A DNA stretch of 61,623 bases, taken from positions 1 through 61,623 of the IMG/VR virus record IMGVR_UViG_3300036795_000110; one strand, 5' to 3'. The notes beneath the pieces were generated by a model, which was not told the origin of the DNA, did no database searches, and was given only the letters and a program-made list of their open reading frames with translations. The stretch comes from a virus. Taxonomy: Duplodnaviria; Caudoviricetes. This document shows positions 15,523 through 43,742 of the stretch, in pieces. Every line of letters begins with the position of its first letter. Position 1 is the first letter of the stretch. The position numbers and the translations under genes were made by a program.

Positions 15523-17445
15523 TTAGCTGTACGGGGTGGTGTCGTGCGCCTGCAGGCCCGTGAGGATCCCGCAGTACATCGGAGCGTTGCAGAGCATCGC
15601 CCCGTACATGAACATCGAGTAGCGGAACGTCGGGTCGATGACCGGCCAGGACACCGACAGGTAGTCCTGGACCATGACCATTTCCCAGATGTTGGAAACG
15701 TTGGACCAGGAGTACGGGACGGTGTACGACATCGCTGCGGCAGTACCCTGCGGCCACCACGGGTGGACCAGCAGCTTGAGGATGTCGCGGGAGAACGGGT
15801 TTACGTACTGCGAGACGGCTGCGCCCGCAATGACGTTGTTGACCTGGTTCTGGTCGATCTTGATCTGGTAGTTGTTGGCCTGGCCCGACTGAACGATATC
15901 GTTCGACAGGTTCATGATGTCGGTGGAGTTGCCGACCAGCTCGGCCGGGGACGCCTTGAAGGCGCCGAACCCGGTACCGTACTGGGCCGACCCGTTCCAC
16001 AGGCCGTTGAGCATGTTGTTCAGGGCCGGGATCGACAGGTGCGAGCCAACCTGCGCCTGGTAGTACCCCGCCTGCCAGCCCACCCCGGTCGGGTAGTTGC
16101 TGCCGCCGGTCGAGGCGGCCCCGGTAAGCGTGGGGATGATGCCCAGCATCCGGTTGGCCCCGGAGGTCCCGGAGTCGGCCGTGGGCGGGAGGATGCCCGC
16201 GTTGGGGACCGTGGGACCCTGCAGGGTCAGCAAGTTGCCGCCCAGACCACTGTAGAACCGGTACATTGTGGTCCGGGTCGGCAGGGTGGATGCCTGGTTG
16301 TTGACGTAGACGTTGAACCACTCGGCGCCCGGCGGGAGCGCCTGCGGGATCTTGACATCGACGACCTGCGCCGAGGTGACGGTGCCAGCATCGGCGGAGA
16401 CCGCCGAGATGATCGTCTCGCCGTACTCGTTCGCGGCGGTGACGGCAACCCAGAGATGGGACGACGCCGGAAGTGCGACCTCGTTGGTGCCGGCCGTGCG
16501 GACGGTGAGCGTGGGGGCCGTGGTCGGAGCGGTGAGGGCAATCGTGTTGCCCGCGATCATCTGGAACTCCTCGTTCAGCATGAACTCCTGAAGGAGGATC
16601 AGATTCGCCAGCGCCGAGATGTCCTCGTAGCCCTGGCCCGCGAACTGGGCCAGCCAGGACAGCGCCTCGGACATCCCGAAGAACTGGTAGGGGATGTTGA
16701 GGGGGACCGCAGACTGCAGGCCGGTGACGGGCATGTTCGTCGGGAACGTACCGCCCGGCATCTGCATCGAGCTGTTGGAGACGTCGGCCAGCGAGATGTC
16801 CACCACGCTGCCATTGCCGCCACCCGTGCCGCCACCGGTCTTCGAGCCGGAGACGCCAGTGATCACGTTGACCCGGCGGCTGGTGCCCTGGCCGGTCACG
16901 CGCGGCATCTTGTTGCGGAAGGGAGTGTAGACGGGGTAGATCAGCCGCGACGGGTTGACCAGGTCGTAGGGGACCAGGCCCTGGGTCGTGGCGGTCAGGG
17001 GTACCGACAGGTTGACGTTCTTGCCCAGCTCGCCCAGGGCCTGCTCGACCTGCTGGAGGAGGTTGGACATCCACGCGCTGGAGCCCGTGCCGGGAGCGTC
17101 CATCGCGGCCATGAAGCTGTTGAACTGTCCCAGGAAGTTGGGATTCAGTCCCTTCATGACCTTCTTGGGGTTCTTGAACGACGTGCGCACGGACTTACGC
17201 AGCGCCTTGGTGGCCTGGTAGGCCAGCATGAACGTGTCCGGGTCGTCGTCGGCCAGCGGCTCCACGCCACGAACCTTGGCGTAGCCGTAGCCCTTGACGG
17301 CCTGGGGCATGTTCTGGGCGAGTGCATCGGAGCCCCGGGTGAACCGGGTGAAGTCCTGGATCTCCAGGTCAGCGTCCGCGGTACTCGTGCCCTTGGGACG
17401 GTCGAACGTGTCCGTAGTATTCGGACGATCAAGCACAGCGACCAA
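15523..17445 (-). CDS. Major capsid protein (HK97 fold) with N-terminal delta region and Ig-like insertion
   Basis: Follows the protease/scaffold; GLVPYDL...YPVYTPFRNKMPRV, HPWWPQGT; insertion TAPTTAPTL...VAVTAANEYGET...FNVYV. Confidence 0.88.
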   Translation of the reverse strand: MVAVLDRPNTTDTFDRPKGTSTADADLEIQDFTRFTRGSDALAQNMPQAVKGYGYAKVRGVEPLADDDPDTFMLAYQATKALRKSVRTSFKNPKKVMKGLNPNFLGQFNSFMAAMDAPGTGSSAWMSNLLQQVEQALGELGKNVNLSVPLTATTQGLVPYDLVNPSRLIYPVYTPFRNKMPRVTGQGTSRRVNVITGVSGSKTGGGTGGGNGSVVDISLADVSNSSMQMPGGTFPTNMPVTGLQSAVPLNIPYQFFGMSEALSWLAQFAGQGYEDISALANLILLQEFMLNEEFQMIAGNTIALTAPTTAPTLTVRTAGTNEVALPASSHLWVAVTAANEYGETIISAVSADAGTVTSAQVVDVKIPQALPPGAEWFNVYVNNQASTLPTRTTMYRFYSGLGGNLLTLQGPTVPNAGILPPTADSGTSGANRMLGIIPTLTGAASTGGSNYPTGVGWQAGYYQAQVGSHLSIPALNNMLNGLWNGSAQYGTGFGAFKASPAELVGNSTDIMNLSNDIVQSGQANNYQIKIDQNQVNNVIAGAAVSQYVNPFSRDILKLLVHPWWPQGTAAAMSYTVPYSWSNVSNIWEMVMVQDYLSVSWPVIDPTFRYSMFMYGAMLCNAPMYCGILTGLQAHDTTPYS

Positions 17446-17448
17446 AGG

Positions 17449-19848
17449 TCAGCCCTCCTTACCGGCTGCGAGCAGGCCCTTTAGCACCTTGCGCGCGTTC
17501 TGGCGCATGGTGGGGTCTCCTCCATTGGCGAATGATCCAACAAACCGCAGATATTCATCGGTTTCAAGATCGTCGGAGCTACCAGCCCCGGCCGCCTTGT
17601 CGATGTAGCTGTGCCGGTCCACCGGACCGCCTAGCTCGGGGAGCCCGCGGTAGGGCGCCTCTAGCGGATCGGGCATCGCGCCCAGGCGCGACACCTCCTC
17701 CTCCAGGTCCCGGATCTTCCGCTGTGCCTTAGCCAGGATGCGCCGCACCTCTGGCTCCTCGGCCGCGTCCTTCCGGACCTGGTGACCCGGCTCTCCTGGA
17801 GCCGGAAGCAGATTGCCGCCCTCGCTGGCGGAGCCCATCGGTGACGGCCGGAGTCCCGTACCGCCGTCGCCCTGGGTGTAGTTGTGGCGTTCCACGTTCA
17901 TAGTGCACAGGTCCGGCCAGCCCGAGGCGACCTGCTCGTGCAGGCGCTGCATCGTGGTCATGGCCTGGCCCATCACCGCGGTGGAGGAGGTGGCCTGGCG
18001 GCCCTCGCCTGGCGACGGAGACTGGTGCCCCGCCCCGACGTACCCCCTCGTAAAGTCTGCCGCGTCCACGTGGTGCACCGGGGCACCCGGCAGCCCGCTG
18101 CCGCCCCCCGCGCTTGCGGAGAGCGACGGGTGGCCGGCCGAGACGTATCCTCGGGTAAACATGCCCGGGTCCACGTCCTGATGGGCGGCGGGACGGTCGT
18201 CGATCCCGGCCTGGAACAGGCTGGGGAACAGCTCGGGGTACGCCTTGCGGGCGTGCATCAGGATCCCCCGGTCGATCCGCTTGATGGCGCTGGCGCTCTG
18301 GGCCATATCAAGGAAGTAGTTGGCCGCGCTCAGATTGCCGTCGTTGATCGCCGCGACAGCAGCCCCCTGCAGCTCCTCGACCGGCATCGCATCCCCCACG
18401 CTCTTTAGGGCGTGGGTGCGGCGGACCTGCTTCTCCCGCAGCGCCGGGCAGACCGCGTCGTGCAGACGCTGCATGGTAGCCATCGCCGGGTCGCCCTCGG
18501 CCTTGTCCACGTGCATCCCGGCGTCGTGCTCGAAGCCCTCGGTCACTGCGCCGTCTGGCTCCCGGTGCTTGCCGGCCGGAACCGAGGTCTTGTCCTTGGC
18601 CCCGCCGGCCACCTGCGAGGGGTCCCGGCCGCCGCTGTCCCCGCGGTGAGCCCCGCCGGGGTTCGCCTTGATCGAGCGGACCAGTTCCTTGCGCTGTGCC
18701 TTGAGCAGGGCCTTGAGTGCTTTGTTCTTGGCCTTGGTGTCCGGCGGGCCGTCGTCGTCCGAGTCCGGGTCGTCGCTGGAGCTGGAGTCCGGGCCGCTGG
18801 AGTCGTCGTACTCGTCGTCGTCATCCTCGGAATCGGCGTTCTCCGCGCCGTCCTGGGCCGCGTCGGCCTTGATGACCATACCCAGCTTCTTGCCGCAGCC
18901 CTTGCACCGCTTGGCGCCGGAGTCGTTCTTGGTCTTGCACTTGAGGCAGGTCTTCATGCCATCGGCGGCGTCGGACTTGTTTGGGGTGCCGTCGTCGTCC
19001 GCGTCGGCGTCGTTTCCTGCCTTGTTTTCGCGCAGACTCTCCGGCATATCAGCGTCTCCCATACCGAACTTTCGATGGGCAATCGATCGGATGCTTGAGC
19101 GGACCTGTGCCGGGTCGTCCGCGTGGTGGGCCAGGCCAGCCGCGTCTCCCACGTCGGCCCGGTTCTTGATGGGGAACGTCTTGCCGGGGCCAGCGAAGTC
19201 GGCGTCGTCCAGGTCCGAGACGTCCCGGCCGCCGGAGTCGACGACCTTGCCGTCCTTCAGCTGGCGCTTGAACACGTTGTGGCGCAGGTAGTCGTCACGG
19301 CGCAGGTCGGCCGGGGTCGGCGGGGGAGCGCCGAACACCTTGTTAACGATCTCGGCCGGGCCGTCCTTGGCCGCCTTCACCAGCTGGAACGTGGTGTTCT
19401 TGTTGGATCCCCGGTCGACCAGGGATACCTCCCCGATCCGGCCGCCGACGATCGTCCCGCCGGGAGCCGTGGGGTCGGTGAAGGTGATCACGGGGTCCAG
19501 GATGCCGACTGAGAAGTCGCGCAAGACGCCCTTCTCGACCAGGCGCTTGGCCGTGTCCTCGACCACCAGGGCCTTGAGCCAGTGCTGGCCGCGCGCCTTG
19601 TCGACCTCCAGCGCCATCCCCTTACCCGCTGGGTACAGGAATGGGGAGTGCTGGACCCGGACGTTACCGCCGGTCTCGATCCAGTCTTGCAGGGCCTTGC
19701 CCGACCACCCGGGCTTAACCCGCTGATGGTCGGCGTCGACCGAGCCATCGGTGCACGGGCCATACACGACCAGGTCACCATCGTCTGTCCGGTCAAACTT
19801 CTCGATAGGGAAGCTGAGATGGACCTCACCCACGGCAGCAGTGGCCAC
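17449..19848 (-). CDS. HK97-type prohead protease fused to accessory and scaffold domains (799 aa)
   Basis: VYGPCT...VDADHQ, VRVQH (His), FSVG (Ser), EVSLVDRGSN; then a DUF6582-like segment, a zinc ribbon, an acidic tract and a coiled coil. Confidence 0.9.
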   Translation of the reverse strand: MATAAVGEVHLSFPIEKFDRTDDGDLVVYGPCTDGSVDADHQRVKPGWSGKALQDWIETGGNVRVQHSPFLYPAGKGMALEVDKARGQHWLKALVVEDTAKRLVEKGVLRDFSVGILDPVITFTDPTAPGGTIVGGRIGEVSLVDRGSNKNTTFQLVKAAKDGPAEIVNKVFGAPPPTPADLRRDDYLRHNVFKRQLKDGKVVDSGGRDVSDLDDADFAGPGKTFPIKNRADVGDAAGLAHHADDPAQVRSSIRSIAHRKFGMGDADMPESLRENKAGNDADADDDGTPNKSDAADGMKTCLKCKTKNDSGAKRCKGCGKKLGMVIKADAAQDGAENADSEDDDDEYDDSSGPDSSSSDDPDSDDDGPPDTKAKNKALKALLKAQRKELVRSIKANPGGAHRGDSGGRDPSQVAGGAKDKTSVPAGKHREPDGAVTEGFEHDAGMHVDKAEGDPAMATMQRLHDAVCPALREKQVRRTHALKSVGDAMPVEELQGAAVAAINDGNLSAANYFLDMAQSASAIKRIDRGILMHARKAYPELFPSLFQAGIDDRPAAHQDVDPGMFTRGYVSAGHPSLSASAGGGSGLPGAPVHHVDAADFTRGYVGAGHQSPSPGEGRQATSSTAVMGQAMTTMQRLHEQVASGWPDLCTMNVERHNYTQGDGGTGLRPSPMGSASEGGNLLPAPGEPGHQVRKDAAEEPEVRRILAKAQRKIRDLEEEVSRLGAMPDPLEAPYRGLPELGGPVDRHSYIDKAAGAGSSDDLETDEYLRFVGSFANGGDPTMRQNARKVLKGLLAAGKEG

Positions 19849-20239: not shown

Positions 20240-20643
20240 GGCTGGATCGCCGGGTCGAGCATCCACTGGCCCCAGAACAGGTTGGTTGCGAACTCGGGGT
20301 CGGCGTAGTCCATCCACAGGGCGTGGAACCACGTTCCGGGCGGGGTAAGCGCCTGGCTGGCCGGCGGGTACAGCGCCAGGGTCAGCGTGGTCAGCAGCGA
20401 GTTGCCAGCGATCGTGATCTCGCCTGCCCCGGCCGGAGTCGGGCTACCCGCGTGGTCGCTGGTGATCTTGATGATGGGGCTGGTATCGGCGGGGGCCGCC
20501 TTGACCACGTATTCGAACGTATGCGACCCGGGCGGGAACGGGTCGGTTCCGTCGTCGCCGGTCCACAGCTGGATGTCCCACGTGGTGTTGCCGCCCCACG
20601 GCAGCCGCAGATCCCACTGGTTGGAGCTGCTGCCCAGCGCCAT
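20236..20643 (-). CDS. Ig-fold (BppU-like) structural protein
   Basis: Beta-strand pattern WDIQLW...FEYVVK...GEITI...LTLAL...GQWML. Confidence 0.6.
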   Translation of the reverse strand: MALGSSSNQWDLRLPWGGNTTWDIQLWTGDDGTDPFPPGSHTFEYVVKAAPADTSPIIKITSDHAGSPTPAGAGEITIAGNSLLTTLTLALYPPASQALTPPGTWFHALWMDYADPEFATNLFWGQWMLDPAIQP

Positions 20644-21752
20644 CAGTAGACCCCACGCGCGGGCAGGGAGTTCATCGAGGCCGCCCACTCCTCGGCCGAG
20701 TCCCGCGGTGTGGCCTGGCCCGCCCCGGTGTTCATGAAGTTCCCGGAACTGCGCCGGGCCAGCTCGTTCTCGATGTTACCGGCCAGGGCAGCCGACTGCC
20801 CGGCGTGGGGCACGATCTCCCCGGCCTTGTGGCGCTGGACGTCGGCCACCAGGTCCCCGTGGGCCGCCTTCAGATCGCCCGGGTGGGCCTGCCGGATCAT
20901 CTCCGCCGACTTGCCCTTGTCGTCGGCCGCCCGCAGCGACTCGGCCGACACCTTGATCCAGCCGTGCTCGTACCCGTGCGGGCCGACCTTGCCTACCGCC
21001 GGAGGCATTCCGTGGGTGTGGGCCAGGCCGTAGGCTACCCCGAACCCGCCCTGCGCCATAACGTTGTGGATGTGCTCGTGCTGGTCGATCAGCTGCTGGC
21101 GATTGAGTTTCTTCGGACCTACCCGCTGGCCGATCACCGGATTGCCCGAGTGCTCGTTCTCCAGATGCCTCCGTAGCTCGCCAACCGGCATCTTATCGGC
21201 GGTCTTGCGGTCGTTGGACGGGGTACCCTCGGGCACCGCGCGGACCCAGCCGTGGGTGAACCCGTGCGGGCCGGCCTTACCGATGCCCGCGCGCAGATAC
21301 TTGACCAGGTCAGGGACGACGGTCCGGTTCTCGTGGGCGGTAACCAGCGAGGCCGCATCCCGGGGGCGGCCCTCCCGGATCGCCGCGGCCAGCTCGTCGC
21401 CGTCGCCGTTGCGGGGCCGGTACCGGCCGGTCGGGCTGTGCCTCAGGTCGTGGCGTTCCTTGGTCAGCTGGTAGATCGCCGGGCCGAGGTCCATCTTTCC
21501 ACGCTCCATCCGCGCGTGCTGCGCGGGGTAGTAGCCCAGGGCCTCGTGGTGGCGCAGGTTGCAGTACCCCTTGGCCTGGTCGGGGGTCATGTGGCCGTGC
21601 TCGGTTACCTGCGCTACGCACCGGTCGAAGTCGCCCGGCGTGCCCCACGCGATCGCATCCGAGAAGGCGTGGTGCGTGGGGCCGCCGTGGCCGTGCCCGG
21701 TCCAGTAGTCCCGTAGGGTCTGAGCGTTCCCGTCCTTACTTGGACTGGGCAT
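20643..21752 (-). CDS. Head-locus polyprotein: N-terminal LRxYW/WGTPGDFxRC/GYCNLRH domain plus two GPxGYxHGW-tagged modules
   Basis: ATG 21752 (MPSPSKDGNAQTLRDYW); tags at 21246..21278 and 20958..20990. Confidence 0.8.
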   Translation of the reverse strand: MPSPSKDGNAQTLRDYWTGHGHGGPTHHAFSDAIAWGTPGDFDRCVAQVTEHGHMTPDQAKGYCNLRHHEALGYYPAQHARMERGKMDLGPAIYQLTKERHDLRHSPTGRYRPRNGDGDELAAAIREGRPRDAASLVTAHENRTVVPDLVKYLRAGIGKAGPHGFTHGWVRAVPEGTPSNDRKTADKMPVGELRRHLENEHSGNPVIGQRVGPKKLNRQQLIDQHEHIHNVMAQGGFGVAYGLAHTHGMPPAVGKVGPHGYEHGWIKVSAESLRAADDKGKSAEMIRQAHPGDLKAAHGDLVADVQRHKAGEIVPHAGQSAALAGNIENELARRSSGNFMNTGAGQATPRDSAEEWAASMNSLPARGVY

Positions 21753-22116
21753 CCCCGGCGGTCTCCTCGGCTGGCTCCGCCGCGTCCTCCGGGACCGTCT
21801 CCTCGTCCGCGGTGGGCTCGGTGCCGGTGACGGCACCCGTCGCGTTAACCACGGCAGCCGGGGGCGGCCCGGCGATCTCGGTGACCGCCGTATGCAGGGC
21901 GTCGTGCGCCTCGACGAGCTGGGAGTGGGCGTGCTCCAGACCGGCCTTGGCCGGGTCGTTGCTACGTGCGCCGAGCTGGTTCCGCAGGTTGGCGCGCGCC
22001 TGGCCCACGTGGAATACGGCATCCCACAGCTTGGTGAACAGTCCGGCGAACGCGCCGGGGACGGGCGCGGGGGTCTCCGCCGCTGGGTCCACGTTCTCGG
22101 GTGCGGTATCGGTCAT
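21736..22116 (-). CDS. Hypothetical helical protein
   Basis: ATG 22116 preceded by a TACAAT -10 element and RBS. Confidence 0.65.
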   Translation of the reverse strand: MTDTAPENVDPAAETPAPVPGAFAGLFTKLWDAVFHVGQARANLRNQLGARSNDPAKAGLEHAHSQLVEAHDALHTAVTEIAGPPPAAVVNATGAVTGTEPTADEETVPEDAAEPAEETAGDAQSK

Positions 22117-22156
22117 GGCGCGTTCCCATCCTCGTCGAGTAGGTGAATCGATGGGG

Positions 22157-22336
22157 TCATTGTACCGGCACGAGCCGGGACAGGACCAGCGCGTCATCCT
22201 GCAAATGGGCCAGGTCGGCCTCGTTGGCCGGGTCGGCGGCCAGCTCGTTTACCCGCTCCAGCGCCACCCGCGCGCTGCCCTTGTCCTCGAACGCCTCGTC
22301 GACCAGCCGGTCGGCCTCGTCCGTAGCTGTACTCAC
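22157..22336 (-). CDS. 59-aa acidic protein translationally coupled to the MuF polyprotein (candidate immunity/inhibitor)
   Basis: GTGA overlap with the MuF stop codon. Confidence 0.55.
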   Translation of the reverse strand: MSTATDEADRLVDEAFEDKGSARVALERVNELAADPANEADLAHLQDDALVLSRLVPVQ

Positions 22337-25300
22337 TTCTCCTCCTCCGAGTACCTGCTCACGTACTGCATCGCGGATTCCCACGCCTCGATGGTCTCGC
22401 CCTCGCCGCCCAGGCTCTTGGTCGTGGCGGTCCAGGACCGGGTGATCGCGCCGGCGATGACCCGCTGGGCCTGAGCGTCGTCCGGGTTGTTCATCCCGGC
22501 GGCCCGCATGATCTGCTTGGCCATCGTCGGGGCCTTGCCCGCCGGTCCCTCCCGGTTGATCTCGTCGGCTAGCTCGCGCATCCGGGTAGTTGTGTTGTTG
22601 CCCTCGGCCGAAGCCACCTTAGAAACCCAGCTCATGGCGGCCTGGGTAGCCCCGGTGTAGTGGCCCCACGACAGGCCCGAATCGATCGCATGGAGCGTAC
22701 TCCGGCCGCGGGCATACTCCTCGGCTGTCATGCTCGGGGCATTACCGAACCCAAGGTAGTGGTCTCCGATGCCGATCTTCTGGAAGAACTCCGGCGCGTG
22801 GTAGGTGGCGCCTAGCTCGGTGAACCCCTCCTCGATCGCGGCCCCGGCCGGGTTCTGGTACGCCTCCGTGTTGTCGTTCTGCCCGTCACTGCCCCAGTCC
22901 TTGAAGCCCTGGGCATGGATCAACTCGTGCAGGATGGTAACCGGGCCGCGCAGGTCCGAGCTGGCCACCCGCCCTTGTCGGGTTCCGCCTCCGGTCCCGC
23001 TGACCGCCCGGACCAGGTGCTTGGCCACGTCCTCCCGGACCTGCATCACGTTGTCCCAGCCCATCCGGGCCAGGATCGCCGCGTTGCCCTTCTCCGGTAT
23101 GACCCGGACCGACTTTATCCCGGGCGCGTCCCGCGCGCCCAGCAGGCCGGGAACGATGTCCTGGGCCTTGGCCACCAGATCGGACAGCGTGCCCGCCGTA
23201 GTGCCCTTGCGCTCGGCCTCGTGCTTGGCCTGGGCCTCCAGCGCCATGGGCTTTAGCGCGTCCCACGCCTTGGCGTAGTCGCCCTCCGGGTCGCGCTCCA
23301 CCACCGAGGGCATCATCGCCACCGGCAGCGGGTGCATGTCCATCGAGGTGTCGTCGGAGTCGGTGTAGGTGGCCATGATCTGGGGCTCGTGACCTGGCCT
23401 GGTGATCAGGCTGAACCGGGACTCGTCGTGCTTGCTGTCCGCGCTGATCCACAGGTTTACGCCGTAGAACGCCTTCGGATCGGTGGTAAGGGCAGCCTGG
23501 CGCCCGTCCGGCAGCTTGTACAGGTGATGGGTCTGCGGCAGCCTGCGCTGGAACGGCGACCCGTAGCCGCTACCGACCGGCTTACTGGTGACCTCGAAGC
23601 TGTGCTCGGACCCGGTCCTGAACCGGACCGTTGCCCGGGTGCCCTCGTTGTTGATCCCGGTGACCTCGCCCTTGCCGTTGCCCTTGGCCGGGTGGCTGAC
23701 CGCCTGGCCGATCGTGGGGATGCCGACGAAGATCCACCCGTGAATGTAGCCCTTGGGGCCGACCTTGACCAGGCTGGGCTGCACCACTTTAGCCACGGTG
23801 GCCTGCTGCCTGGCCTCCGCAAAGTTAGCCATCAGCGCCTGGTACCACTCGGACCGCTTGCTCTGGGCGAACTCGGGCTCCAGCGCCCGCAGGCCCTGCT
23901 CCCACTTGGCCCACTGGGCCGCGCTCCATCGGGCGCCGGACCGCTCAAGTTCCTTGCGGAACGGGCCGGTAGAAGATAGTGGGGGAGCGGTATACCGGGC
24001 GTGGCTGTGATCGATCGGCACCGGCTGGCCGTCCTCGGCAACCATCCAGTTACCATCGGCCCGGTCGGTGTTGCGGGTTAGTTTGTCCAGCAGTCCGATT
24101 CTTTCCCCGGCCGCCGATTTGGTGTACTTTTGCAGCCCTGGCTCGTTGATCTTGTAGCTATCGACCCCCAGGTCCACATTCGACTTGCCACGGACCACGG
24201 GCTGCCACAGCTTACCGCCCTTGACTAGGACGTGAGGAGCGCCGGCGCCGATCACGTCGGACACCCGGGAGGCCAGAACCTCCGCGTCGCGGTTGGTCTT
24301 GTCGCCGCTCTTGCGAATCCACTCGCTGCCGTCGTTGAACTTTACCCGGGCGGTGGCGTGGGTGGTCTTGCCGCCGGCCTCCTCGCTGGCGATCCCCGAC
24401 TTGTGGGCCGCGTCCAGGACGTGAGCAGCGTTCCCTCCGGGCGCACCCACGAAGACCCACCCGTGGATGTAGCCGTGCGGGCCGACCTTGGTCACCATAC
24501 CACCAGTCAACCCGGCAGTTGTCTCCTTGTCAACGCGGGCCGCCGCGGTCGAGGCCGGGTCGGAGCTGGTCCGCTGGTAGACGTGGGTCTGCAGCACGGC
24601 AGGAACGTCGGCATAGGCCACCTTGCCCACCCACGCGGGCAGCGGGACCCCGGCATCCCGGGCGGCCAGAGCACGGTGGTGCCCGTCCACGTCCAGGAGC
24701 TGCTCGCCCGGCCCGCCCTTGGTCGGCAGGTCGGCCAGTACCGCGGGCTTGACCTTCTCGCCGTCCCGGAACTTGTCCGCGAACCGGCCGACCTTGCCGG
24801 GCTGGTGGCTGGCCGCCCACGAGTCCATATCGTCGTGGTCGATCTCGTCCCACGTCACGCCGCGCGGGCCGCTCCACTCCGCCCGCAGCACCCACTCGAT
24901 CGATCCGGGCGGGTAGTTCTCCAGCAGTTGCTCGTAGACCTTCTGGGCGGTCTTGTCGGACTTGAACATGCTCGGTCGTTGCAGTGCGGCAACTACGCGC
25001 GGTAGGTCGGTGGCCAGCTCGGGCCGCAGGGGCTCCTGGTGGGCGATCTCGTCCGGCAGCACCCACGCCAGGGCCTCGTGGTGGGTACCGTCCGGATCGT
25101 CCACCTCATCCCTATCGCCGGTCGACATGCAGTGCTCGTTCGCCACGTCCATGATGAACGCCCGGTAAACGCCGTTGGAGCTGGTCCAGCCCGGCCGCGG
25201 GATACCGCCCGGCAGCAGCTTACCGACCTCCTCCTGCCATTCGCGGACGGCAGCCACGATGACCAGTTCCCCGGGCTCCAGGGTCCCGCCGGGGAACTCC

Positions 25301-26280
25301 CAGCAGCCGGGCGCCTTGTCGCCGTCCTCCTCGGACCGCTTGATCATCAGCACCCGGCCCGTGTCGGCCGCGCGCAGCACGACACCGGCCGCCACCACGC
25401 CGGCCTTCTGGATACTGGTAAGACGCATCGGCGGGATACCGGATTCCGGCAGGTCGTCCGGCAGGACCGCACAGCGGCAGGGGCCGGGGTGGGCCGGGGG
25501 GGCTACCACGCCGGAATCGAACAGTCCGCCGATGGGGATGATGCCCTGCTCCTGGTTGGCCATACAGACCGGGCACACCCGCTCGTCGTGGGCGGTACTC
25601 CAGCGCTTGCCCTCCTGGTTGGCCTCCCGGTACGCACCGAGGGCGGCCAGCGAGGTCGCACGGTTCAGCTCGGTCGAGGCGATCATGTAGTCGCGGGACG
25701 GGTTGTCCAGGATGGGCCGGATATTCTCCGCGATCTCGTCGGCCGACGAGCCGCTGTCAAACCCGGCCGCCAGCTGGTCGGCCAGCTGCCGCATCCGGGT
25801 ATCCGCGATCGACTTGATGGTCTGGATACCGTAGGTGTCGAGCATCTGCTGGAGGCCGTCGCCCGCCACCAGGCGGGCCGCGTCCACGTCGCCGGGCTGC
25901 CAGTGGTCCCAGAACGTGGAGTCGTAGGCCGAATCGACCATCTCCTTACCCGCCTCGCGGCCGACCGCAAACCCCTCGGTCCACAGGTTGGCCAGGATGC
26001 GGTGCAGGGCCTGGGTTACCACGTTGGCGATGCCGCGCGCCACCAGCCAGCCCCACGCAGCCGGGTTCGGCATGGCCGACTTCTCGACCGCCCCGGACGG
26101 GACCGACTCCAGCCACAGGCGGGCCAGGTCGAGCGGCTCGACCTGGGCCAGCGAGCGGGTCAGCTGCTCGCCGTAGATCCGGGCTAGCTGCTGGTCGTGC
26201 CGCCACCCGGACCAGGGCCGCGCAGAGGAGCCGTCGCTGCTGTGCTGCCACTGGTCCAGGGCCTCGGCCAGCGCGATCAT
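22333..26280 (-). CDS. MuF (SPP1 gp7-like) minor head protein fused to Nudix, ParB-like, HipA/PI3K-like kinase, SH3/Tudor-like and HExxH metallopeptidase domains
   Basis: IASTELNRA...KRWSTAHDERVCPVC...PPAHPGPCRC (MuF); GGTLEPGELVIVAAVREWQEEVG (Nudix box); DGHHR; K...EVLAS...NTDRADGNWM...IDH; HELIH...EEGFTE. Confidence 0.88.
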   Translation of the reverse strand: MIALAEALDQWQHSSDGSSARPWSGWRHDQQLARIYGEQLTRSLAQVEPLDLARLWLESVPSGAVEKSAMPNPAAWGWLVARGIANVVTQALHRILANLWTEGFAVGREAGKEMVDSAYDSTFWDHWQPGDVDAARLVAGDGLQQMLDTYGIQTIKSIADTRMRQLADQLAAGFDSGSSADEIAENIRPILDNPSRDYMIASTELNRATSLAALGAYREANQEGKRWSTAHDERVCPVCMANQEQGIIPIGGLFDSGVVAPPAHPGPCRCAVLPDDLPESGIPPMRLTSIQKAGVVAAGVVLRAADTGRVLMIKRSEEDGDKAPGCWEFPGGTLEPGELVIVAAVREWQEEVGKLLPGGIPRPGWTSSNGVYRAFIMDVANEHCMSTGDRDEVDDPDGTHHEALAWVLPDEIAHQEPLRPELATDLPRVVAALQRPSMFKSDKTAQKVYEQLLENYPPGSIEWVLRAEWSGPRGVTWDEIDHDDMDSWAASHQPGKVGRFADKFRDGEKVKPAVLADLPTKGGPGEQLLDVDGHHRALAARDAGVPLPAWVGKVAYADVPAVLQTHVYQRTSSDPASTAAARVDKETTAGLTGGMVTKVGPHGYIHGWVFVGAPGGNAAHVLDAAHKSGIASEEAGGKTTHATARVKFNDGSEWIRKSGDKTNRDAEVLASRVSDVIGAGAPHVLVKGGKLWQPVVRGKSNVDLGVDSYKINEPGLQKYTKSAAGERIGLLDKLTRNTDRADGNWMVAEDGQPVPIDHSHARYTAPPLSSTGPFRKELERSGARWSAAQWAKWEQGLRALEPEFAQSKRSEWYQALMANFAEARQQATVAKVVQPSLVKVGPKGYIHGWIFVGIPTIGQAVSHPAKGNGKGEVTGINNEGTRATVRFRTGSEHSFEVTSKPVGSGYGSPFQRRLPQTHHLYKLPDGRQAALTTDPKAFYGVNLWISADSKHDESRFSLITRPGHEPQIMATYTDSDDTSMDMHPLPVAMMPSVVERDPEGDYAKAWDALKPMALEAQAKHEAERKGTTAGTLSDLVAKAQDIVPGLLGARDAPGIKSVRVIPEKGNAAILARMGWDNVMQVREDVAKHLVRAVSGTGGGTRQGRVASSDLRGPVTILHELIHAQGFKDWGSDGQNDNTEAYQNPAGAAIEEGFTELGATYHAPEFFQKIGIGDHYLGFGNAPSMTAEEYARGRSTLHAIDSGLSWGHYTGATQAAMSWVSKVASAEGNNTTTRMRELADEINREGPAGKAPTMAKQIMRAAGMNNPDDAQAQRVIAGAITRSWTATTKSLGGEGETIEAWESAMQYVSRYSEEEK

Positions 26281-29200
26281 GCGGGGACTACTTCCACGTG
26301 AGTAGTGCCGTCCGGCTCTACCCGGACGGAGGCTATTTTGTATTTGCCCCGGGATACGTACTCGTCATCGTCGGAGTTTGGTCCATGGTTGTACCGGGCC
26401 AGCGATACGGCCGGTACTCCGGACCCGTGCATGACCACCTGGTGTGCTCTCGGCTGCCAGCCTTCGACTCCTTCTCCCCGGGCGTACCGGCCGGCTGATG
26501 CCGGATCGCCGGACCACGACAGGGCGTCGTGCTCGAACGTAGCCCCGGGCTTGAAGATCGACGTATCGTCTACCGACATTCCACGATACAGATGGTCCTG
26601 CGGCGTACTGTCGTAGTCGATCAGTTCGTTCATGGCAGAGGCTGCACCGACCAGCTCGCGATCCCAGTCACTCTGGTCGAACAGGACCTTATCGCCCTTG
26701 GCGTTGGTAATGTCAGGAAACCTGGCCCGGTCAATCCGGCCCTCCGGCCGGTCTGTGTACGGGTGCTGGCCGTTGCGCAGGTTCCTCATGACATGCCGGA
26801 CAGCCAGCATATCGCCATAGGAACTGCTCCAGAGGGTCACCGCCCGGTCCGTGCTGACCCGTTCCCGTAGCCCGGCGTAGCGCCTGCTCGCGTCGGTGTA
26901 CTGACCCGGTACCCGATATTTCTGGGCGATCTGCTTTACCGGTCCGCTGTAGTCGATCTGGCGGCTGGCAGGATCGCCCGCATGGACCCACCCGTGGGAG
27001 TAGCCCTTAGGGCCAACTTTGGAGACCATCGTAGTCGTCCCACGCGCTTTTGGGCCAGCATCACCTGCCTTGGTCACCTGGTGGATCTGGGCTCCCTCGG
27101 GCTGGTCGCAGAACGTACAGGCGCCGTATCCGCCCCCGGCAAAGCGGTGGGGCCTGCCGCTGGCCTCCAGGTCGTACGGGGCCAGGCCCTGCTGCCCGCC
27201 CTGCTCGTTCAGCGGGGCCGAGGTCGACATCACCTTGGCCACCTGGCCGTGCAGGATACCGGTAACCGCGTCGTCCGGCAGGAACTCGGGCTCCCACGGC
27301 TGGCGGCCCGAGGCCATCGCCGCGATGGCCGCCTGGACCACGTGGGTGGCGATGTGGCGGGCCAGGCCCGGGTCCACCCCGGCGGCCATCAGTTCCCGGA
27401 TCAGGTGGCCGGTCACCGCGGCGGCTGCCGCGTCGTCGGCCTTCTCGCCCGGCTTGAGCGGGGTAATCGGCAGCTCAGTGTGCTGACGCCGGACCTGGTA
27501 GTATTCGGCCAGCTCTCGGCCCACCTCGGGCATCTTGTCCAGCAGCAGCGGCCCGAGGGCCACCAGCGACAGGCCGCCGGTAAAGAACGCCATGGCGATC
27601 GAGGCCGCCACGCTGACCAGGCGGATAGCGGCAGCGGCCTTGGCCTCCTTGTGCTTCTCGGCGTGCAGCTCGGCCCGTAGCGCGTTGATCTGCTTCTGCA
27701 GGTCCTGGACCTGGGCGTCGGTGTACACCCGGGCCTGGTTGTTGGCCGTGGCCACCGTTCGCATGTGGGTAGGCGGCTTCGCTGCGCCGGTCCCCAGGTC
27801 GCTGGTACCAGCTCCGGGGTCCTTGGACCACCGGCCGCGGGCGTCGCGTAGCTCGCCCTCCCACCCGGACTTGCGGACCTGCTCGACCTGGCCCGTGATC
27901 GTGGGCGGGCCGAACGCGCTAATCACGAACTCGCGAGTAACCGCTGCCGCGTCGTCCGGGTCCAGGTGCTTGAGCAGGGATCCCACGTGGTCCATCACCA
28001 GGCCGGGCAGGTACCGGGTCTCCCACGTCCTCAGCTGGCGGCCCTTGTTCAGGTGGCGCCGGAGGGCGTCCAGCTCCGACAGCATCGCCTTGGAGGAGGA
28101 GCTGGCGTGCTCCTCGTCGGCGCCGGCGGTCAGCGGGGGCCGCACCGGAGGCTCGAGTGGTTTACCGGCAGCGAAGTCCTCGTGCATCTGCTGCTGGACA
28201 CCCGCGTGGGCCTCGGCCGCGTCCTGCCGGGACTGGCCGACCTTGTCGCCCGGAGCCGGTCCCACGTGGGGCGGGGGAGCGCCGGGAGGGCCGCCGGGGG
28301 GCGGGGTCTGGCCGGGAGGGGCTCCCGGCGGCTTCGGGGCGGCTCCGGGCGGGCTCGGGGACCCGGCCGGGGGCTTCTGCCCGGGTGGCAGCGCCGGGGG
28401 GCTCCCCGGGCCGCCCGGAGCCGGGGGGGCACCGCCAGGCGGGGGCGGGGCACCGATCGGCTGCGGGGGAGGCGTGCCCATCGGCCTACCGGAGGTCGGG
28501 TCGATCGAGCCCAGCGGGACCATGCCCGCGGTAGCGCTCACGAACACCGGGTCGGAGGTGATCGGCAGGCCCCACGGGGCCTTGTCCAGGGCGATCCGGC
28601 ACTCGTCGATCGAGCTGAACCCGAAGGACACCATCTGGACCAGGCGCTCCACCAGGGCGTTTTCGTCCTCGTCCTCCTCCAGCCCCTCGAAGACGAACCT
28701 CATATCCTCCTGGTGCCAGACCTCCTGGATGATCACGTTGAATACGTCGGTGAGGAAGGCCAGGGTCGGCTTAAGGGACTTGCGCTGGTTGGTGCTCTGC
28801 GACGCCTTGGCCATCTGATTCGCGGCGCCGGGGGACTGGGTGGTCGAGACCTTGGGGCTGACACCTAGCTCCATCGGCATCACATCGAACGCCATGCACA
28901 CCTGGGTCATCACGATCTCGTCGAACTGGTCGGCCAGGGCCACCGGCCGCATCGGGAACACCTTGGAGCCCGGCGGCAGGGCGATCGACTTGTGCTTCCA
29001 CGCCGGGTCGCCGGCCAGGGCGTTCTGCTGGTTCTGCCAGATCTCCAGCTGGTTGGGCGTCCAGCCTAGCTGCTCGCCGGGGCTGATGTAGTTGCCCGGG
29101 ATCGTGCCCTCGTCGAAGAAATCCATCTGGAACTGCTGCTTACGAAGGCCGGTGATCACCGGGATGATCGACCGTTCGATCGGCGGGAACCCGTAGGGCG

Positions 29201-30119
29201 TCCACGCCCTGGCCGTGTAGGGCAGGTACATCAGCTGGTCGCCCCGGTACTGCTTGACCGGGTTCTCGCCGTCCATCTCCTTCACGTCGTCGCCGCGCAG
29301 GATCTCCATCAGGTCGCTGCGCGGTACTCCGTAAAGGTACTGCTGGTACCCGGGCGACGGCGGGCTGACCCGGCCGCCCCGCACGTTCACCAGGGGCCGG
29401 ATCGTGTTACCGGAGATCAGCTCCAGCGCGGCCACGCTGCTACCGAACGGTCCCTTGCCCGCCAGCTTGGTCGGGTGAAGGTACAGGCTCAGGGCGTCGA
29501 CCGACAGCATCTCCTCGATCACCGCGTCGATGTACGATCCGAACTTGATGTAGTCGGGGTCGGGCTTGCGGAAGAACTTTACCGCGATGGCCTTTCGCTC
29601 CGCGAACTCCTTGTGGGCCTTCTTGTCGCCGCGCATGGCACGCTCGGCCTCGGCCGTGGGCATGATGTCCCACTCCAGGCCGCGGATCTCGGACTTGCGC
29701 ACCTGCAGGGCAGCTCGGGCCACCGAGTACAGGTCGGCGTACATCCGCAAGGTGCCGAAGGAGGCCAGCTTGAACCCCTCGGACCCGGGCACACCGATTG
29801 GCATGTTCCAGCCCACCGGCATCTCCCGCTGGCGGGGGCCGGGCCGCTCCAGGTCGCCATCGGGGACGTTCACCGCGGTGGTCTGGATCGGGCTTAGCGG
29901 GGTGAACGTCCCGGCCAGGAACTCCATCGGATCGCGGGGCAGCGCCTGGCCCGTGCTGTGCCCATAGATCGTCTCCTGGTACTGGGCCACCAGGGGCGAG
30001 ATGTCCTTGCGGACCTCGTGCCGGCGCTTGGCCCGGTTGATTGCCCTAACTACGCGTGCCGGGTCAGTGGCCAATGCCGTTGTCCTTAATGGTCTGGACG
30101 ATCCGGTCGTGGTGGGCAT
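26277..30119 (-). CDS. Portal protein with a long C-terminal extension ending in an ADP-ribosyltransferase-like domain (start may be TTG 30074)
   Basis: Portal core of about 530 aa (PYGFPPIE, FFDEGTIP, FDVMPMELG, SIDECR), a Pro-rich linker, a hydrophobic helix, a tag at 26988..27020, then LYRG / LSWS / DDEYV. Confidence 0.88.
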   Translation of the reverse strand: MPTTTGSSRPLRTTALATDPARVVRAINRAKRRHEVRKDISPLVAQYQETIYGHSTGQALPRDPMEFLAGTFTPLSPIQTTAVNVPDGDLERPGPRQREMPVGWNMPIGVPGSEGFKLASFGTLRMYADLYSVARAALQVRKSEIRGLEWDIMPTAEAERAMRGDKKAHKEFAERKAIAVKFFRKPDPDYIKFGSYIDAVIEEMLSVDALSLYLHPTKLAGKGPFGSSVAALELISGNTIRPLVNVRGGRVSPPSPGYQQYLYGVPRSDLMEILRGDDVKEMDGENPVKQYRGDQLMYLPYTARAWTPYGFPPIERSIIPVITGLRKQQFQMDFFDEGTIPGNYISPGEQLGWTPNQLEIWQNQQNALAGDPAWKHKSIALPPGSKVFPMRPVALADQFDEIVMTQVCMAFDVMPMELGVSPKVSTTQSPGAANQMAKASQSTNQRKSLKPTLAFLTDVFNVIIQEVWHQEDMRFVFEGLEEDEDENALVERLVQMVSFGFSSIDECRIALDKAPWGLPITSDPVFVSATAGMVPLGSIDPTSGRPMGTPPPQPIGAPPPPGGAPPAPGGPGSPPALPPGQKPPAGSPSPPGAAPKPPGAPPGQTPPPGGPPGAPPPHVGPAPGDKVGQSRQDAAEAHAGVQQQMHEDFAAGKPLEPPVRPPLTAGADEEHASSSSKAMLSELDALRRHLNKGRQLRTWETRYLPGLVMDHVGSLLKHLDPDDAAAVTREFVISAFGPPTITGQVEQVRKSGWEGELRDARGRWSKDPGAGTSDLGTGAAKPPTHMRTVATANNQARVYTDAQVQDLQKQINALRAELHAEKHKEAKAAAAIRLVSVAASIAMAFFTGGLSLVALGPLLLDKMPEVGRELAEYYQVRRQHTELPITPLKPGEKADDAAAAAVTGHLIRELMAAGVDPGLARHIATHVVQAAIAAMASGRQPWEPEFLPDDAVTGILHGQVAKVMSTSAPLNEQGGQQGLAPYDLEASGRPHRFAGGGYGACTFCDQPEGAQIHQVTKAGDAGPKARGTTTMVSKVGPKGYSHGWVHAGDPASRQIDYSGPVKQIAQKYRVPGQYTDASRRYAGLRERVSTDRAVTLWSSSYGDMLAVRHVMRNLRNGQHPYTDRPEGRIDRARFPDITNAKGDKVLFDQSDWDRELVGAASAMNELIDYDSTPQDHLYRGMSVDDTSIFKPGATFEHDALSWSGDPASAGRYARGEGVEGWQPRAHQVVMHGSGVPAVSLARYNHGPNSDDDEYVSRGKYKIASVRVEPDGTTHVEVVPA

Positions 30120-34246: not shown

Positions 34247-35797
34247 CTAGGCCGCGGCTGTGGCCATGACCCCAGGCTCGATCGGCTCCTGGCAGTGCGG
34301 GCACTGCGGCCGGTCCTTGAGCAGGATCGACATCCGGTCGCAGCGCGGGCAGGTATAGGACTGCCCGTACATCGAACTCCAGTCCATGTTGGCCGTTAGC
34401 TCGTGGATGCCCCAGACCAGGGCGTCCAGGCGGTCGGGCGATTCGCGGTCCAGCGGGGTCCAGGTGCACAGCTGGTCCTCCAGCTTGGGAAACGCTCCCA
34501 CGTGGTGGGCGCGGCCCTGCTCGTACATCGACGATGCCGGCTCCGCCCGGACCTGCTTGCCCCGGCTGGCGGTGACCTTGCGGTACGGGACGTTCTCGTC
34601 GTAGGTGCGGACCAGCTCCTCGATGAAGTCGCCGCCGTTGTTGGCCTCAGCGACCAGGCGGTCGGCCTCGAACTCGTAGTAAGCCCCGATCGCGCGCTTC
34701 ATGCCCTGGCCGGGCGTCATCCGGCCGGATAGGTCGGCCAGCACGTACACGTCGCCATCGGTGCCCAGGCCCACCACCATGATGCCGAACTCGGCCGAGG
34801 TGGACTTGCTCGTGGTGGCCGGGTCGACCGCGACGACGATCCGCCGCATGGGAACGTCGGGCAGCTCGATCTGGCCGTCCTCGCCCCGGGCCGCCACCAG
34901 CCGGTCCCGCTCCAGCCACGCGCGCTTCCACAGGGCGCCCTCGACATCCGCGATCAGCTCGCCCTCAAGTTCCTGGCGGCCGATCCGCGTCCCGCCGTAC
35001 CGGCGGTACAGCTCCTGCAGGGCGATGTCCGAAAGGTTCTGCTGGTTCTCCAGGGTCGAGCCCTGGGTTATGTGGACCGTCCCGTCAGTGCGCCCGGCCA
35101 GCTCCCGCAGCAGGGCCGTCCCACGCGGCGTCGTGGTCACCAGCATACGGGGACGTTCACCGATGCGCAGCGCGGGCATCAGGCCCTCGTGCCAGGTGGC
35201 CTCGTACCGCCACGAGCCCAGCTCGTCGGCCCACCCGCCCGACAGGTTCGAGCCGCGGACCCGGTCGGGGCGGTCGGCCGAGAAACCGTAGATGATCGAG
35301 CCGTTGGCCAGCTCCAGCTCCAGATCGTTCCGCCGGTAGTTGGCGATCTCCTCCTTGCGCAGGGCCTTGAGCAGGCCGCTCGACCCCTCAATGCAGATCC
35401 GCCGGGTGTCGGAGAACGTGGGGGCGATGCAGCACCAGGCCGACCCGGGGATGGCCAGGGCCTGCTCGGCCAGCCACGAGGCGCCCACCCACGTCTTGCC
35501 GAACCCGCGGCCCGACATCAGCAGCCAGACCAGCCAGTCCGTGTCGGGGACGGGCGGGCCGTCCTTGTGGCACTGGCAGGCCGACAGCTCCTGCACCTTG
35601 CCGTCGCGGCCGGTGATGGTCTGGGCGTAGCCGTGCCGGGGGTCGTCCGGCGGGAGCTGCTTGTACCGGGCGAACCGGCGCCACTCCCGCATCCGCTGCC
35701 GGGCGCGCTCCGCGGCCAGCTTGCGCCGCAGCGCCCGCTTCCGGGGGAGCGACCACGACTGCCAGCCCTCGGGCAGGATGAAGTCCGGTTGTGCCAT
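34247..35797 (-). CDS. terL: Terminase large subunit with a C-terminal zinc ribbon
   Basis: SGRGFGKT Walker A, GWADE Walker B, VTTTP, VAVDPA nuclease, SPDRLDALVW; leaderless after TATACT. Confidence 0.95.
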   Translation of the reverse strand: MAQPDFILPEGWQSWSLPRKRALRRKLAAERARQRMREWRRFARYKQLPPDDPRHGYAQTITGRDGKVQELSACQCHKDGPPVPDTDWLVWLLMSGRGFGKTWVGASWLAEQALAIPGSAWCCIAPTFSDTRRICIEGSSGLLKALRKEEIANYRRNDLELELANGSIIYGFSADRPDRVRGSNLSGGWADELGSWRYEATWHEGLMPALRIGERPRMLVTTTPRGTALLRELAGRTDGTVHITQGSTLENQQNLSDIALQELYRRYGGTRIGRQELEGELIADVEGALWKRAWLERDRLVAARGEDGQIELPDVPMRRIVVAVDPATTSKSTSAEFGIMVVGLGTDGDVYVLADLSGRMTPGQGMKRAIGAYYEFEADRLVAEANNGGDFIEELVRTYDENVPYRKVTASRGKQVRAEPASSMYEQGRAHHVGAFPKLEDQLCTWTPLDRESPDRLDALVWGIHELTANMDWSSMYGQSYTCPRCDRMSILLKDRPQCPHCQEPIEPGVMATAAA

Positions 35798-36121
35798 AAG
35801 GGTCAGTATAGGCGACAGCCCCGGCCGAGGGAAACTCGGCCGGGGCTGCCCGGTCCCGGTCAGGGGCTACGCGGCCCGCCGAAGCGGACTATAGCTTACG
35901 CGGTGCCACCCGCTGCCGCACTTGCTTACTTTCCCTGGCCGGCCTAGTCGATGTCCGTCGAGTGGATCTGCGTCCCATCGGACAGAACGAACACCATCTC
36001 ACACCGCCCGGAAAGGCGGACCTCGACGACATCGCCGGGGACGACGAACTCGTCGGCGGCCTCGATCGGGTCCGTCCACTGGCCGCCCTTCTCGGCCACG
36101 ACTACGACCTTGAGGCTCATC

Positions 36122-43477: not shown

Positions 43478-43742
43478 CGTTGTCCTCAGCACCGTTGGCC
43501 AGCTGCGGGAACATCTGGGCCAGCGGGTGGTCTGCCGGGACCTGGATCGAGCCCAGCACGCCCGGCATCGGCATACCCATTCCTGGCATCAGGCCGGGGC
43601 CGGCGATCTTGGGCGTGGGCACGATACCGGCCCGCTGGCCCAGCCAGAACCATACCCGCTTACGAGCCTCAGGGTCCAGCGTCTCCAGCGTGCTGGCCAT
43701 ATCGAACATGGCCCGGGTCTCGGTCTCGACGGTCGTCTTCAC
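43464..43742 (-). CDS. Hypothetical protein
   Basis: Fills the operon; LETLDPEARKRVWFWL. Confidence 0.55.
   Translation of the reverse strand: MKTTVETETRAMFDMASTLETLDPEARKRVWFWLGQRAGIVPTPKIAGPGLMPGMGMPMPGVLGSIQVPADHPLAQMFPQLANGAEDNDDED

Follow-up and report, generated by a model that had tools for sequence, protein, structure and literature searches.

How tailed phages choose the proteins of their capsids and free the effectors fused to them has been worked out in detail mainly for T4 and a small number of giant phages. Encapsulins load cargo by means of short conserved peptides, usually C-terminal, that bind the HK97-fold shell protein directly, while the multi-enzyme polyproteins of picornaviruses and potyviruses have at each junction a conserved sequence that is cut by the virus's own protease, i.e. 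3C and NIa, respectively. In phage head loci, the polyvalent proteins are closest to the system described here; as set out in the available parts of two accounts, they carry effector domains on portal, MuF and protease proteins, and packaging and injection of these domains have been proposed (PMC5512222, PMC9503650). Similarly, the available part of a study on phage SPN3US describes that its prohead protease gp245 cleaves portal, capsid and ejection proteins, as well as itself, after A-X-E (P3-P2-P1) (PMC10052503). Here, we analysed a complete, 61,623-base virus record that has direct terminal repeats (IMGVR_UViG_3300036795_000110; hereafter the window), in which an initial annotation had pointed to an 11-residue peptide, K-[VA]-G-P-[HK]-G-[YF]-x-H-G-W (hereafter the tag), that heads five cargo modules in three genes of the head locus.

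A search of the six-frame translation of the window with the regular expression GP[HK]G[YF].HGW returned exactly five matches, all on the minus strand (26988-27014, 24457-24483, 23734-23760, 21246-21272 and 20958-20984), confirming the five copies in the portal protein, the MuF polyprotein and the product of a third head-locus gene (Table 1). The degenerate DNA pattern for the tag also matched five times compared to a mean of 0.00 in 100 dinucleotide-preserving shuffles; thus, the recurrence of the tag in the window is not the result of chance. As initially annotated, a hydrophobic residue, any residue and Lys occupy positions -4, -3 and -2 relative to G-P in all five copies, i.e. a P3-x-P1-type motif is repeated in several head proteins of this phage. 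Moreover, third codon positions do vary between the copies, if modestly (AAA/AAG, GTT/GTC, CCT/CCG/CCC, GGC/GGG, ATC/ATT), and the nucleotide flanks of the copies are unrelated. The frame of a sixth, incomplete match (GYIHGW, 43777-43794) contains no long open reading frame (ORF), and we took this match as chance.

For viral contigs and prokaryote genomes, we used a degenerate DNA pattern encoding G-P-[HKQN]-G-[YF]-x-H-G-W. The viral contigs had at least 147 loci with this pattern, comprising 171 sites in 127 distinct contexts. By comparison, 596 Gb of prokaryote genomes contained 71 pattern sites, six of which had the extended tag context; all six are on contigs of Streptosporangiaceae and Mycobacterium metagenome-assembled genomes (Actinomycetota). 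The remaining matches are in short junk frames, which puts the chance background of the pattern at about 0.1 per Gb. A profile built from the 127 tag segments (profile A1) and searched against 1.84 billion proteins identified 553 cluster representatives at E<=1e-3, of which 95 reached E<=1e-10, and many of the 553 contain two to four copies of the tag. A word-indexed search of 5.8 billion proteins gave 82 matches; nearly all are 'hypothetical' or nameless, and those with names are two SPP1 gp7 head morphogenesis proteins and two MutT/NUDIX proteins. These sequences extend the consensus to hydrophobic-x-[K, L/F or R]-[V/A]-G-P-[K/H]-G-[Y/F]-x-H-G-W-[IV]-x-[VH]-G, in which G, P, G, H, G and W are invariant. 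Because variants of the tag escape the strict motif, the counts obtained with the DNA pattern are lower bounds. Such variants, G-T-P-D-T-F-T-H-D-W and G-P-E-G-Y-I-H-G-W, were seen just after the protease domain in the loci L231/L232 (records G004 and G012).

Among large phage records (59-132 kb), a profile search found 18 tags in G006, 13 in G004 and 14 in G012, on one strand. The tags of G006, which is the record behind locus L033, lie in a block of ~31 kb (61.9-93.3 kb) inside open frames of up to 1918 amino acids (aa); in G004 and G012, the tag-bearing open frames reach 2317 aa. Such a block of tagged cargo is very large.

The initial annotation knew of no named family for the tag, and this still holds: the tag is without a Pfam family in the window proteins, in 67 viral ORFs and in 106 further tag proteins. 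Its profile had a best match of E 0.84 in the PDB, PHROG matches fall outside the tag, and a search for the motif string in papers and preprints returned irrelevant matches only. In total, these searches indicate that the tag is widespread among phages and restricted to them, with hundreds of uncultured phages carrying it. The carriers are probably a large group of uncultured high-GC phages infecting actinobacteria.

The position of the tag within proteins follows a rule. Of the 203 fetched proteins, 111 contain one tag, 76 contain two and 16 contain three. None of these 311 tags is within 60 residues of the C terminus, the smallest distance being 67; in this sense, the tag respects module boundaries. 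For 62 of the 203, the first tag is found among the 40 N-terminal residues. We also observed a single tag-like site close to a C terminus, a degenerate V-D-L-V-G-P-Q-G-Y-E-H-G-G in L242:10197-11270, which is a 358-aa open frame overlapping the gene that follows. About 35 residues separate this site from the end of the frame, and either decay of a tag copy or a frameshift at a junction may account for it.

Tags cluster within contigs, spanning at most 8.5 kb in 27 of 31 multi-tag contigs, and what follows them varies. Among tag-bearing viral ORFs of at least 250 aa, 24 of 67 have a Pfam match. The fusion orders seen are portal domain-tag-Arr-ms, MuF domain-tag-ADPrib_exo_Tox or NUDIX, and tag upstream of Peptidase_S78; free-standing tags are followed by ADP-ribosyltransferase (ART), Zeta_toxin, Arr-ms or 2H domains. 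The further tag proteins are mostly anonymous: 92 of 106 (~87%) have no Pfam family, and the other 14 contain ART (8), zeta toxin (3), Zn ribbon (2) or GNAT (1) domains, one of the ART proteins also having a NUDIX domain. Thus, the profile and pattern surveys revealed the enrichment in portal, MuF and protease loci, directly upstream of variable enzymatic domains, that had been named as support for a cargo role.

The residue two before G-P is uniform in each of the 31 multi-tag contigs, being Lys in 14 and Leu/Phe in 17, and in 71 of 72 multi-tag proteins. This flank residue, or dialect, partitions with the family of the resident prohead protease. A locus search with the window protease gave a single relative, and whole virus records were searched instead. 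The window-type protease domain was present in 12 of 13 Lys records, the missing one being 24% complete. None of the 18 Leu/Phe records had it, and completeness is 95-100% for many of these. In an alignment of 13 proteases of this type, H67 and S113 are invariant. The relatives match Peptidase_S78 (PF04586) in homologous places with 15-24.7 bits, one of them above the cut-off; the protease-scaffold protein of the window has no Pfam match. The domain ends in a conserved E-hydrophobic-V-x-K-hydrophobic (EIVNKVF, 19333-19353, in the window) that resembles the tag flank. Hydrophobic-x-Lys-[VA] sites in the scaffold region, 4-5 by eye vs ~2 by rough estimate, were not informative.

The Leu/Phe records, by contrast, share a conserved gene of 400-540 aa just upstream of the scaffold and capsid genes (examples in Table 1). 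The family has at least 737 members and is without a Pfam domain or name. AlphaFold2 modelled the N-terminal domain from 53 members with a predicted local distance difference test score (pLDDT) above 90. When this fold was compared to the PDB, herpesvirus assemblins accounted for 28 of the 29 rows listed (Epstein-Barr virus 1o6e, E 6.4e-4, prob 1.00), and matches also included the proteins of Kaposi's sarcoma-associated herpesvirus, human cytomegalovirus and herpes simplex virus as well as T4 gp21. His, Ser and His are invariant, in that order, and the domain is fused to a coiled-coil scaffold part. Based on the model, this family is predicted to be a previously unannotated assemblin/T4 gp21-type prohead protease. 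Sequence searches of both protease families against the PDB found nothing, which is why the fold search was used, and a profile-profile comparison of the two families detected no similarity between them. The family is present in 16 of the 18 Leu/Phe records and in none of the 13 Lys records. Finally, six records have Arg at position -2; canonical Peptidase_S78 scores above cut-off in five of them and neither of the other two families is present in any.

These observations bear on the earlier suggestion that a prohead protease cuts after the Lys of the tag. Cutting after Lys cannot be general, as many relatives have Leu, Phe or Arg instead; however, the residue partitions with the resident prohead protease family, and this partition gives circumstantial support for cleavage at the flank. 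A complex prediction for the window-type protease domain (A4) with a Lys-dialect tag (A7) scored 0.00 without controls and counts neither way.

On the basis of these sequence comparisons, we tentatively favour a reading in which a cut site suited to the resident protease is joined to a universal cargo tag, i.e. a bipartite 'cargo header' that involves cleavage, loading and a second reader. The 11-residue motif would be the core of a header of ~22 residues, hydrophobic-x-Lys followed by [V/A]-G-P-[K/H]-G-[Y/F]-x-H-G-W-hydrophobic-x-hydrophobic-(G). The header would be a self-contained peptide, unstructured alone, at the N-terminal edge of swappable modules, and its carriers would be head-internal proteins, i.e. 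portal, MuF, protease-scaffold and free-standing head-locus proteins. Its first part would provide P3, P2 and P1 of a cleavage site for the assemblin-fold prohead protease of the same phage, Lys being P1 for the type encoded by 17449-19848; in the window, we propose that the protease-scaffold protein reads the hydrophobic-x-Lys flank. The protease would cut after procapsid assembly, with the scissile bond directly after P1, so that the portal, MuF and third-gene polyproteins would give five free pieces starting with V/A-G-P-x-G-Y. The invariant part would be kept at the new N terminus of each module and be read by a partner common to all carrier phages. This partner would most likely be the procapsid interior or the protease-scaffold core, the tag then being a loading signal like the T4 capsid targeting sequence; a role in exit from the capsid or in action inside the host is less likely. 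A bolder form, in which the invariant peptide is the universal portable capsid-cargo address of actinobacterial phages, the three-residue adaptor is tuned in each lineage to the maturation protease, and the cargo is released in the head and injected, is possible but rather doubtful.

Three candidate explanations were set aside. MuF has no support as the universal reader, with PF04233 in 24 of 32 records and missing in three of 13 near-complete ones, and the barrel described below is not favoured as reader, as many partial contigs have tags without a barrel module. Known self-cleavage chemistries require a conserved Ser, Thr, Cys, Asn or Asp-Pro; the tag has none of these.

An alternative to the cargo header is that the tag is a cis-acting structural element that functions without cleavage, either as an N-terminal strand or hairpin that caps or nucleates the module behind it or as a spacer by which the modules stay independent, the dialects reflecting only deep phage lineages. 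In our reading, the alternating hydrophobic residues around a G-P-x-G turn would suit a β-hairpin. Moreover, about a quarter of the copies are directly followed by a small barrel that weakly resembles Tudor/SH3-like domains (TDRD3, E 0.07, prob 0.99), for which W-I-F-V-G could be the first strand, and because dialect groups differ in many head genes, lineage alone could yield the partition. However, the tag is outside any known folded domain in Pfam or the PDB, membership in which would have refuted the initial interpretation, and in the AlphaFold2 model based on 21 tag-barrel sequences the barrel has a pLDDT of 70-83 while the tag is below 50 and is not packed onto the barrel; this model suggests that the tag and the fold that follows it are separate, and the evidence is soft because the alignment is shallow. 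Many other tags are followed by Pro-rich or Gly-rich linkers rather than a fold, and the modules behind the tag are unrelated folds. A purely structural strand also gives no reason for three flank residues that are uniform within every genome (31/31). We therefore regard this alternative as unlikely.

Somewhat less probable still is that the tag is purely a long and specific polyprotein cleavage cassette, in which all ~20 residues including the prime side are recognised and which has no targeting role. Tags do occur at polyprotein junctions, and a tag or degenerate tag is found just after the protease domain in four of the 13 window-type protease ORFs; the flank tracks the protease family, and a long site would spare diverse cargo enzymes from stray cuts. 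Yet 42 of 280 tags in gene-called proteins are within 25 residues of the N terminus, the others being internal. The common start of such proteins is M-x(0-6)-[IV]-[DE]-L-V-G-P, and the shortest leaders are exactly three residues (MDL-VGP, VIK-VGP). Cutting would be pointless here, yet the invariant residues are intact. Moreover, the core is identical across three protease families without detectable sequence similarity.

A further possibility, which we consider improbable, is that the tag acts after ejection by docking injected modules on a conserved host component such as a chaperone, an unfoldase or an envelope factor, on which they would refold, localise or become activated. A conserved host reader would more easily explain a core that is invariant while portal, capsid and protease families differ, and the likely hosts are all Actinomycetota. 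On the other hand, no host partner has been identified, tags are also present on scaffold-like Zn-ribbon proteins and right after the protease domain, neither of which is expected to be injected, and the link between flank and protease is left unexplained. Finally, the suggestion that the tag is a DNA-level crossover point for swapping cargo, with peptide conservation as a by-product of cassette exchange, has very little to commend it: modules are clearly shuffled with the tag exactly at their boundaries, but synonymous sites vary among the five copies, their flanks are unrelated, the peptide persists in records with GC contents of 62-71%, and the invariant Trp, His, Tyr and Pro point to selection at the protein level.

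Several points weigh against the cargo header reading itself, the support for which comes entirely from sequence. The dialect groups differ in portal and capsid families also, and several contigs are near-duplicates, so that independent events are far fewer than records; thus, the partition between flank and protease may be a lineage effect. One complete record of the Phe dialect (G030) has none of the three protease families. Because the core is identical across these families, the protease cannot explain it and, as the core is also intact on free-standing proteins, a second reader would be needed. The MuF-NUDIX and NUDIX-ParB-like junctions of the window MuF protein have no tag and, similarly, in locus L039 an ART domain passes into MuF without a tag at the junction. 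Internal tags dominate in both dialects (117/129 for Lys and 117/144 for Leu/Phe). In addition, the low pLDDT of the tag may come from the shallow 21-sequence alignment, and W-I-F-V-G could be the first strand of the barrel in that class of modules. The notion that free N-terminal tags prevail in the Leu/Phe dialect and internal ones in the Lys dialect was only weakly supported and set aside (odds ratio 2.25, p 0.037).

Exchange of modules between dialects was considered as well. The same barrel module is found behind both Lys and Leu/Phe tags. When 41 ART domains were placed on a tree, the five rows of the Leu dialect required 4 changes vs a shuffled mean of 4.8; they do not form one clade, with weak support, which hints at exchange of ART domains between the dialect groups. 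Against this stands that the tree is poorly resolved and that its starred branches force one change only.

The head module of the window lies in a genome of 66-70% GC in which the minus strand carries nearly all genes. In order, it encodes the terminase large subunit, the portal protein, MuF, the third gene, the protease-scaffold protein and a probable major capsid protein (Table 1), the last named from position and size only. In the portal protein, the portal domain (approximately residues 95-540) is followed by a Pro-rich linker, a long extension, the tag and a C-terminal module. The extension contains a 75-residue Pro-rich linker (28248-28472) and a 33-residue hydrophobic, seemingly membrane-spanning segment (27540-27638), both on the minus strand and both between the portal domain and the tag. 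The MuF polyprotein comprises, in order, the MuF domain (residues 165-272), NUDIX (296-420), a DGHHR region that we read from its motif as ParB-like, a tag, the kinase-like module, a second tag, a Tudor/SH3-like barrel and an HExxH module; thus, several effector-type regions (Phage_Mu_F, NUDIX, kinase-like and HExxH) are in one polypeptide. The third gene has a phrog_6439 domain followed by two short tag-headed modules. Its initially annotated start at MPSPSK agrees with the phrog match, the gene caller having given a shorter 315-aa form (P0031), and an ESM Atlas look-up was uninformative (pLDDT 0.50). The 96-residue module between its two tags contains HEHIH (21066-21080, minus strand), which could be a minimal metal site or chance.

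The initial assignments of the cargo modules held in part. The ADP-ribosyltransferase-like portal module has YRG, SxS (SWS) and acidic motifs in the right order; however, it scored only 5.2 bits against our own ART profile and matched neither a Pfam family (E<=1) nor a PDB sequence. An ART-like nature is therefore possible but unconfirmed. The kinase-like MuF module does match PI3_PI4_kinase, but below the cut-off of 27.1 bits. For the SH3-like module, the AlphaFold barrel resembles Tudor/SH3-like barrels, if weakly (the Foldseek match given above), and for the putative HExxH peptidase the motif is present (HELIH at residue 1118, 22915-22929), but neither Pfam nor PHROG gave a peptidase match there.

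Table 1. Features of the window and of related loci discussed in the text; coordinates without a prefix refer to the window.
Feature	Coordinates	Strand	Remarks
Terminase large subunit	34250-35866	-	First in head module order
Portal gene, 1280 aa	26277..30119	-	phrog_2662 6.9e-30; PF04860 28.8 bits, under the cut-off of 39.1
Tag copy 1, KVGPKGYSHGW	26988..27020	-	Portal residue 1036; 48.6 bits vs profile A1; extended element V-S-K-V-G-P...W-V-H-A-G at ~26976-27026
Portal cargo module, 245-251 aa	26280..26987	-	No Pfam family at E<=1, no PDB sequence match
MuF polyprotein, 1315 aa	22333..26280	-	Phage_Mu_F 37.4 bits and NUDIX 61.7 bits, both above cut-offs
Tag copy 2, KVGPHGYIHGW	24457..24489	-	MuF residue 600; 53.8 bits vs profile A1
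Kinase-like module between MuF tags	23767..24456	-	PI3_PI4_kinase 25.4 bits, E 1.6e-5
Tag copy 3, KVGPKGYIHGW	23734..23766	-	MuF residue 841; 59.8 bits vs profile A1
MuF C-terminal module	22336..23733	-	Small beta-barrel directly after tag, then HELIH region
Third head-locus gene, 369 aa from MPSPSK	20643..21752	-	phrog_6439 2e-18
Tag copy 4, KAGPHGFTHGW	21246..21278	-	Third gene; 38.9 bits vs profile A1
Tag copy 5, KVGPHGYEHGW	20958..20990	-	Third gene; 51.0 bits vs profile A1
Prohead protease-scaffold fusion, 799 aa	17449..19848	-	phrog_21715
Window protease domain	~19249-19848	-	Invariant His (VRVQH 19648-19662) and Ser (DFSVG 19504-19518)
Probable major capsid protein gene	15526..17448	-	phrog_13692 2.7e-55, family of unknown function
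Conserved gene of Leu/Phe records, examples	L242:8015-9217; L243:5468-6799; L244:6017-7627		
Same family, Araceli gene 14	L270:9989-11095		

The scaffold part of the protease-scaffold protein contains two copies of F-T-R-G-Y-V-x-A-G-H at a spacing of 35 residues (18130-18159 and 18025-18054, both on the minus strand), and the close relative L225 has two similar copies. The same protein has a CxxC...CxxC zinc-ribbon motif (18895-18948, minus strand); in relatives, Zn-ribbon domains are repeatedly seen in head proteins that bear tags or are encoded nearby (P0071, P0094, L242:9778-10236). Outside the head module, 44236-45537 (minus strand) matches phrog_1211, a relative of PurZ-type adenylosuccinate synthetase (4e-77). 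Because this gene adjoins a dUTPase-like gene and a DNA polymerase gene (42605-43588, 46451-48742), the sequence suggests that adenine may be replaced by 2-aminoadenine in this phage (Z-genome).

Searches of cultured phages by several routes gave no carrier of the tag. Megablast of the 9.5-kb region against cultured phages gave no match. In tblastn searches of cultured phages with a 40-aa tag segment (E<=1) and an 80-aa segment of tag plus barrel (E<=10), nothing relevant was found, and as the bare 13-residue core could not reach these thresholds, these negative results are only weak evidence that cultured phages lack the tag. Among cultured phages, those nearest to the window by their MuF protein (Arthrobacter phage Sonali and others) have a head locus without the tag. 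The Leu-type protease family is present in Streptomyces phage Araceli and ten further cultured Streptomyces phages, where it is annotated as 'hypothetical protein'. A scan of Araceli, the one of these phages that was scanned, found degenerate look-alikes but no canonical tag. Two of them, G-A-T-G-W-K-H-G-W-I-P-V and F-R-Y-K-H-G-W-I-L-I, are in gene 9 (L270:4762-8271, 'ADP-ribosyltransferase', 1169 aa), where they come after an N-terminal domain similar to that of L242:10197-11270. Araceli gene 9 may serve as a cultured-phage handle for experiments.

In total, the tag is a widespread, sequence-defined candidate signal at the boundaries where loading and release must be decided. The partition between flank and protease offers a specific and cheap test, i.e. 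the P1 residue against the protease family, and a predicted protease fold can now be assigned to at least 737 unnamed proteins, some of which are encoded by cultured Streptomyces phages. Should the cargo header reading be true, the tag gives a rule for finding packaged effectors, most of the scanned tagged proteins being without a Pfam family, as well as a handle for loading proteins into phage heads. If the bolder idea of a portable address is true, phages would trade effector cassettes freely, arbitrary proteins could be packaged by design, and the tag would be the phage counterpart of encapsulin loading peptides.

Compared to known systems, the locus fits the polyvalent proteins in that it has at least two effector-type domains per polypeptide, to which relatives add ART, Arr-ms, 2H and zeta toxin, and in that these are encoded among the terminase-portal head genes and fused to portal and MuF. 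Phage-type polyvalent proteins likewise string together ART, NUDIX, 2H, kinase-like and zincin-like HExxH domains, and processing of the polypeptide has been proposed for them; however, the proposed processing is by the zincin-like metallopeptidase, whereas here the flank tracks the prohead serine protease family (PMC5512222, PMC9503650). No shared junction peptide is described in the available parts of these accounts, and the supplementary domain lists of PMC5512222 could hold an overlapping domain. With the SPN3US sites, which are read by an assemblin-fold protease, the tag flank shares the form of three residues, P3-x-P1, being hydrophobic(P3)-x-P1. By contrast, P1 would here be Lys, Leu/Phe or Arg depending on the protease family, and a 15-residue invariant peptide is fused to the putative site, while the SPN3US sites, in the available part of that account, have no such peptide (PMC10052503).

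Like the encapsulin peptides, the tag is a short conserved peptide on unrelated cargo, but it is N-terminal to that cargo and has a candidate protease site attached. In comparison to viral polyprotein junctions, the tag is far longer than the site itself and is found, too, at the start of free-standing proteins, for which cutting is unnecessary. On internal proteins and Alt of T4, the capsid targeting sequence is a short N-terminal peptide that unrelated head-internal proteins share and that is tied to cleavage by the prohead protease, as the tag may be, and it is not known to resemble the tag in sequence. However, the T4 sequence is removed by gp21 and lost, whereas here the cut-site-like flank is upstream and the tag would stay on the cargo; moreover, the tag, unlike the T4 sequence, also occurs many times inside polyproteins.

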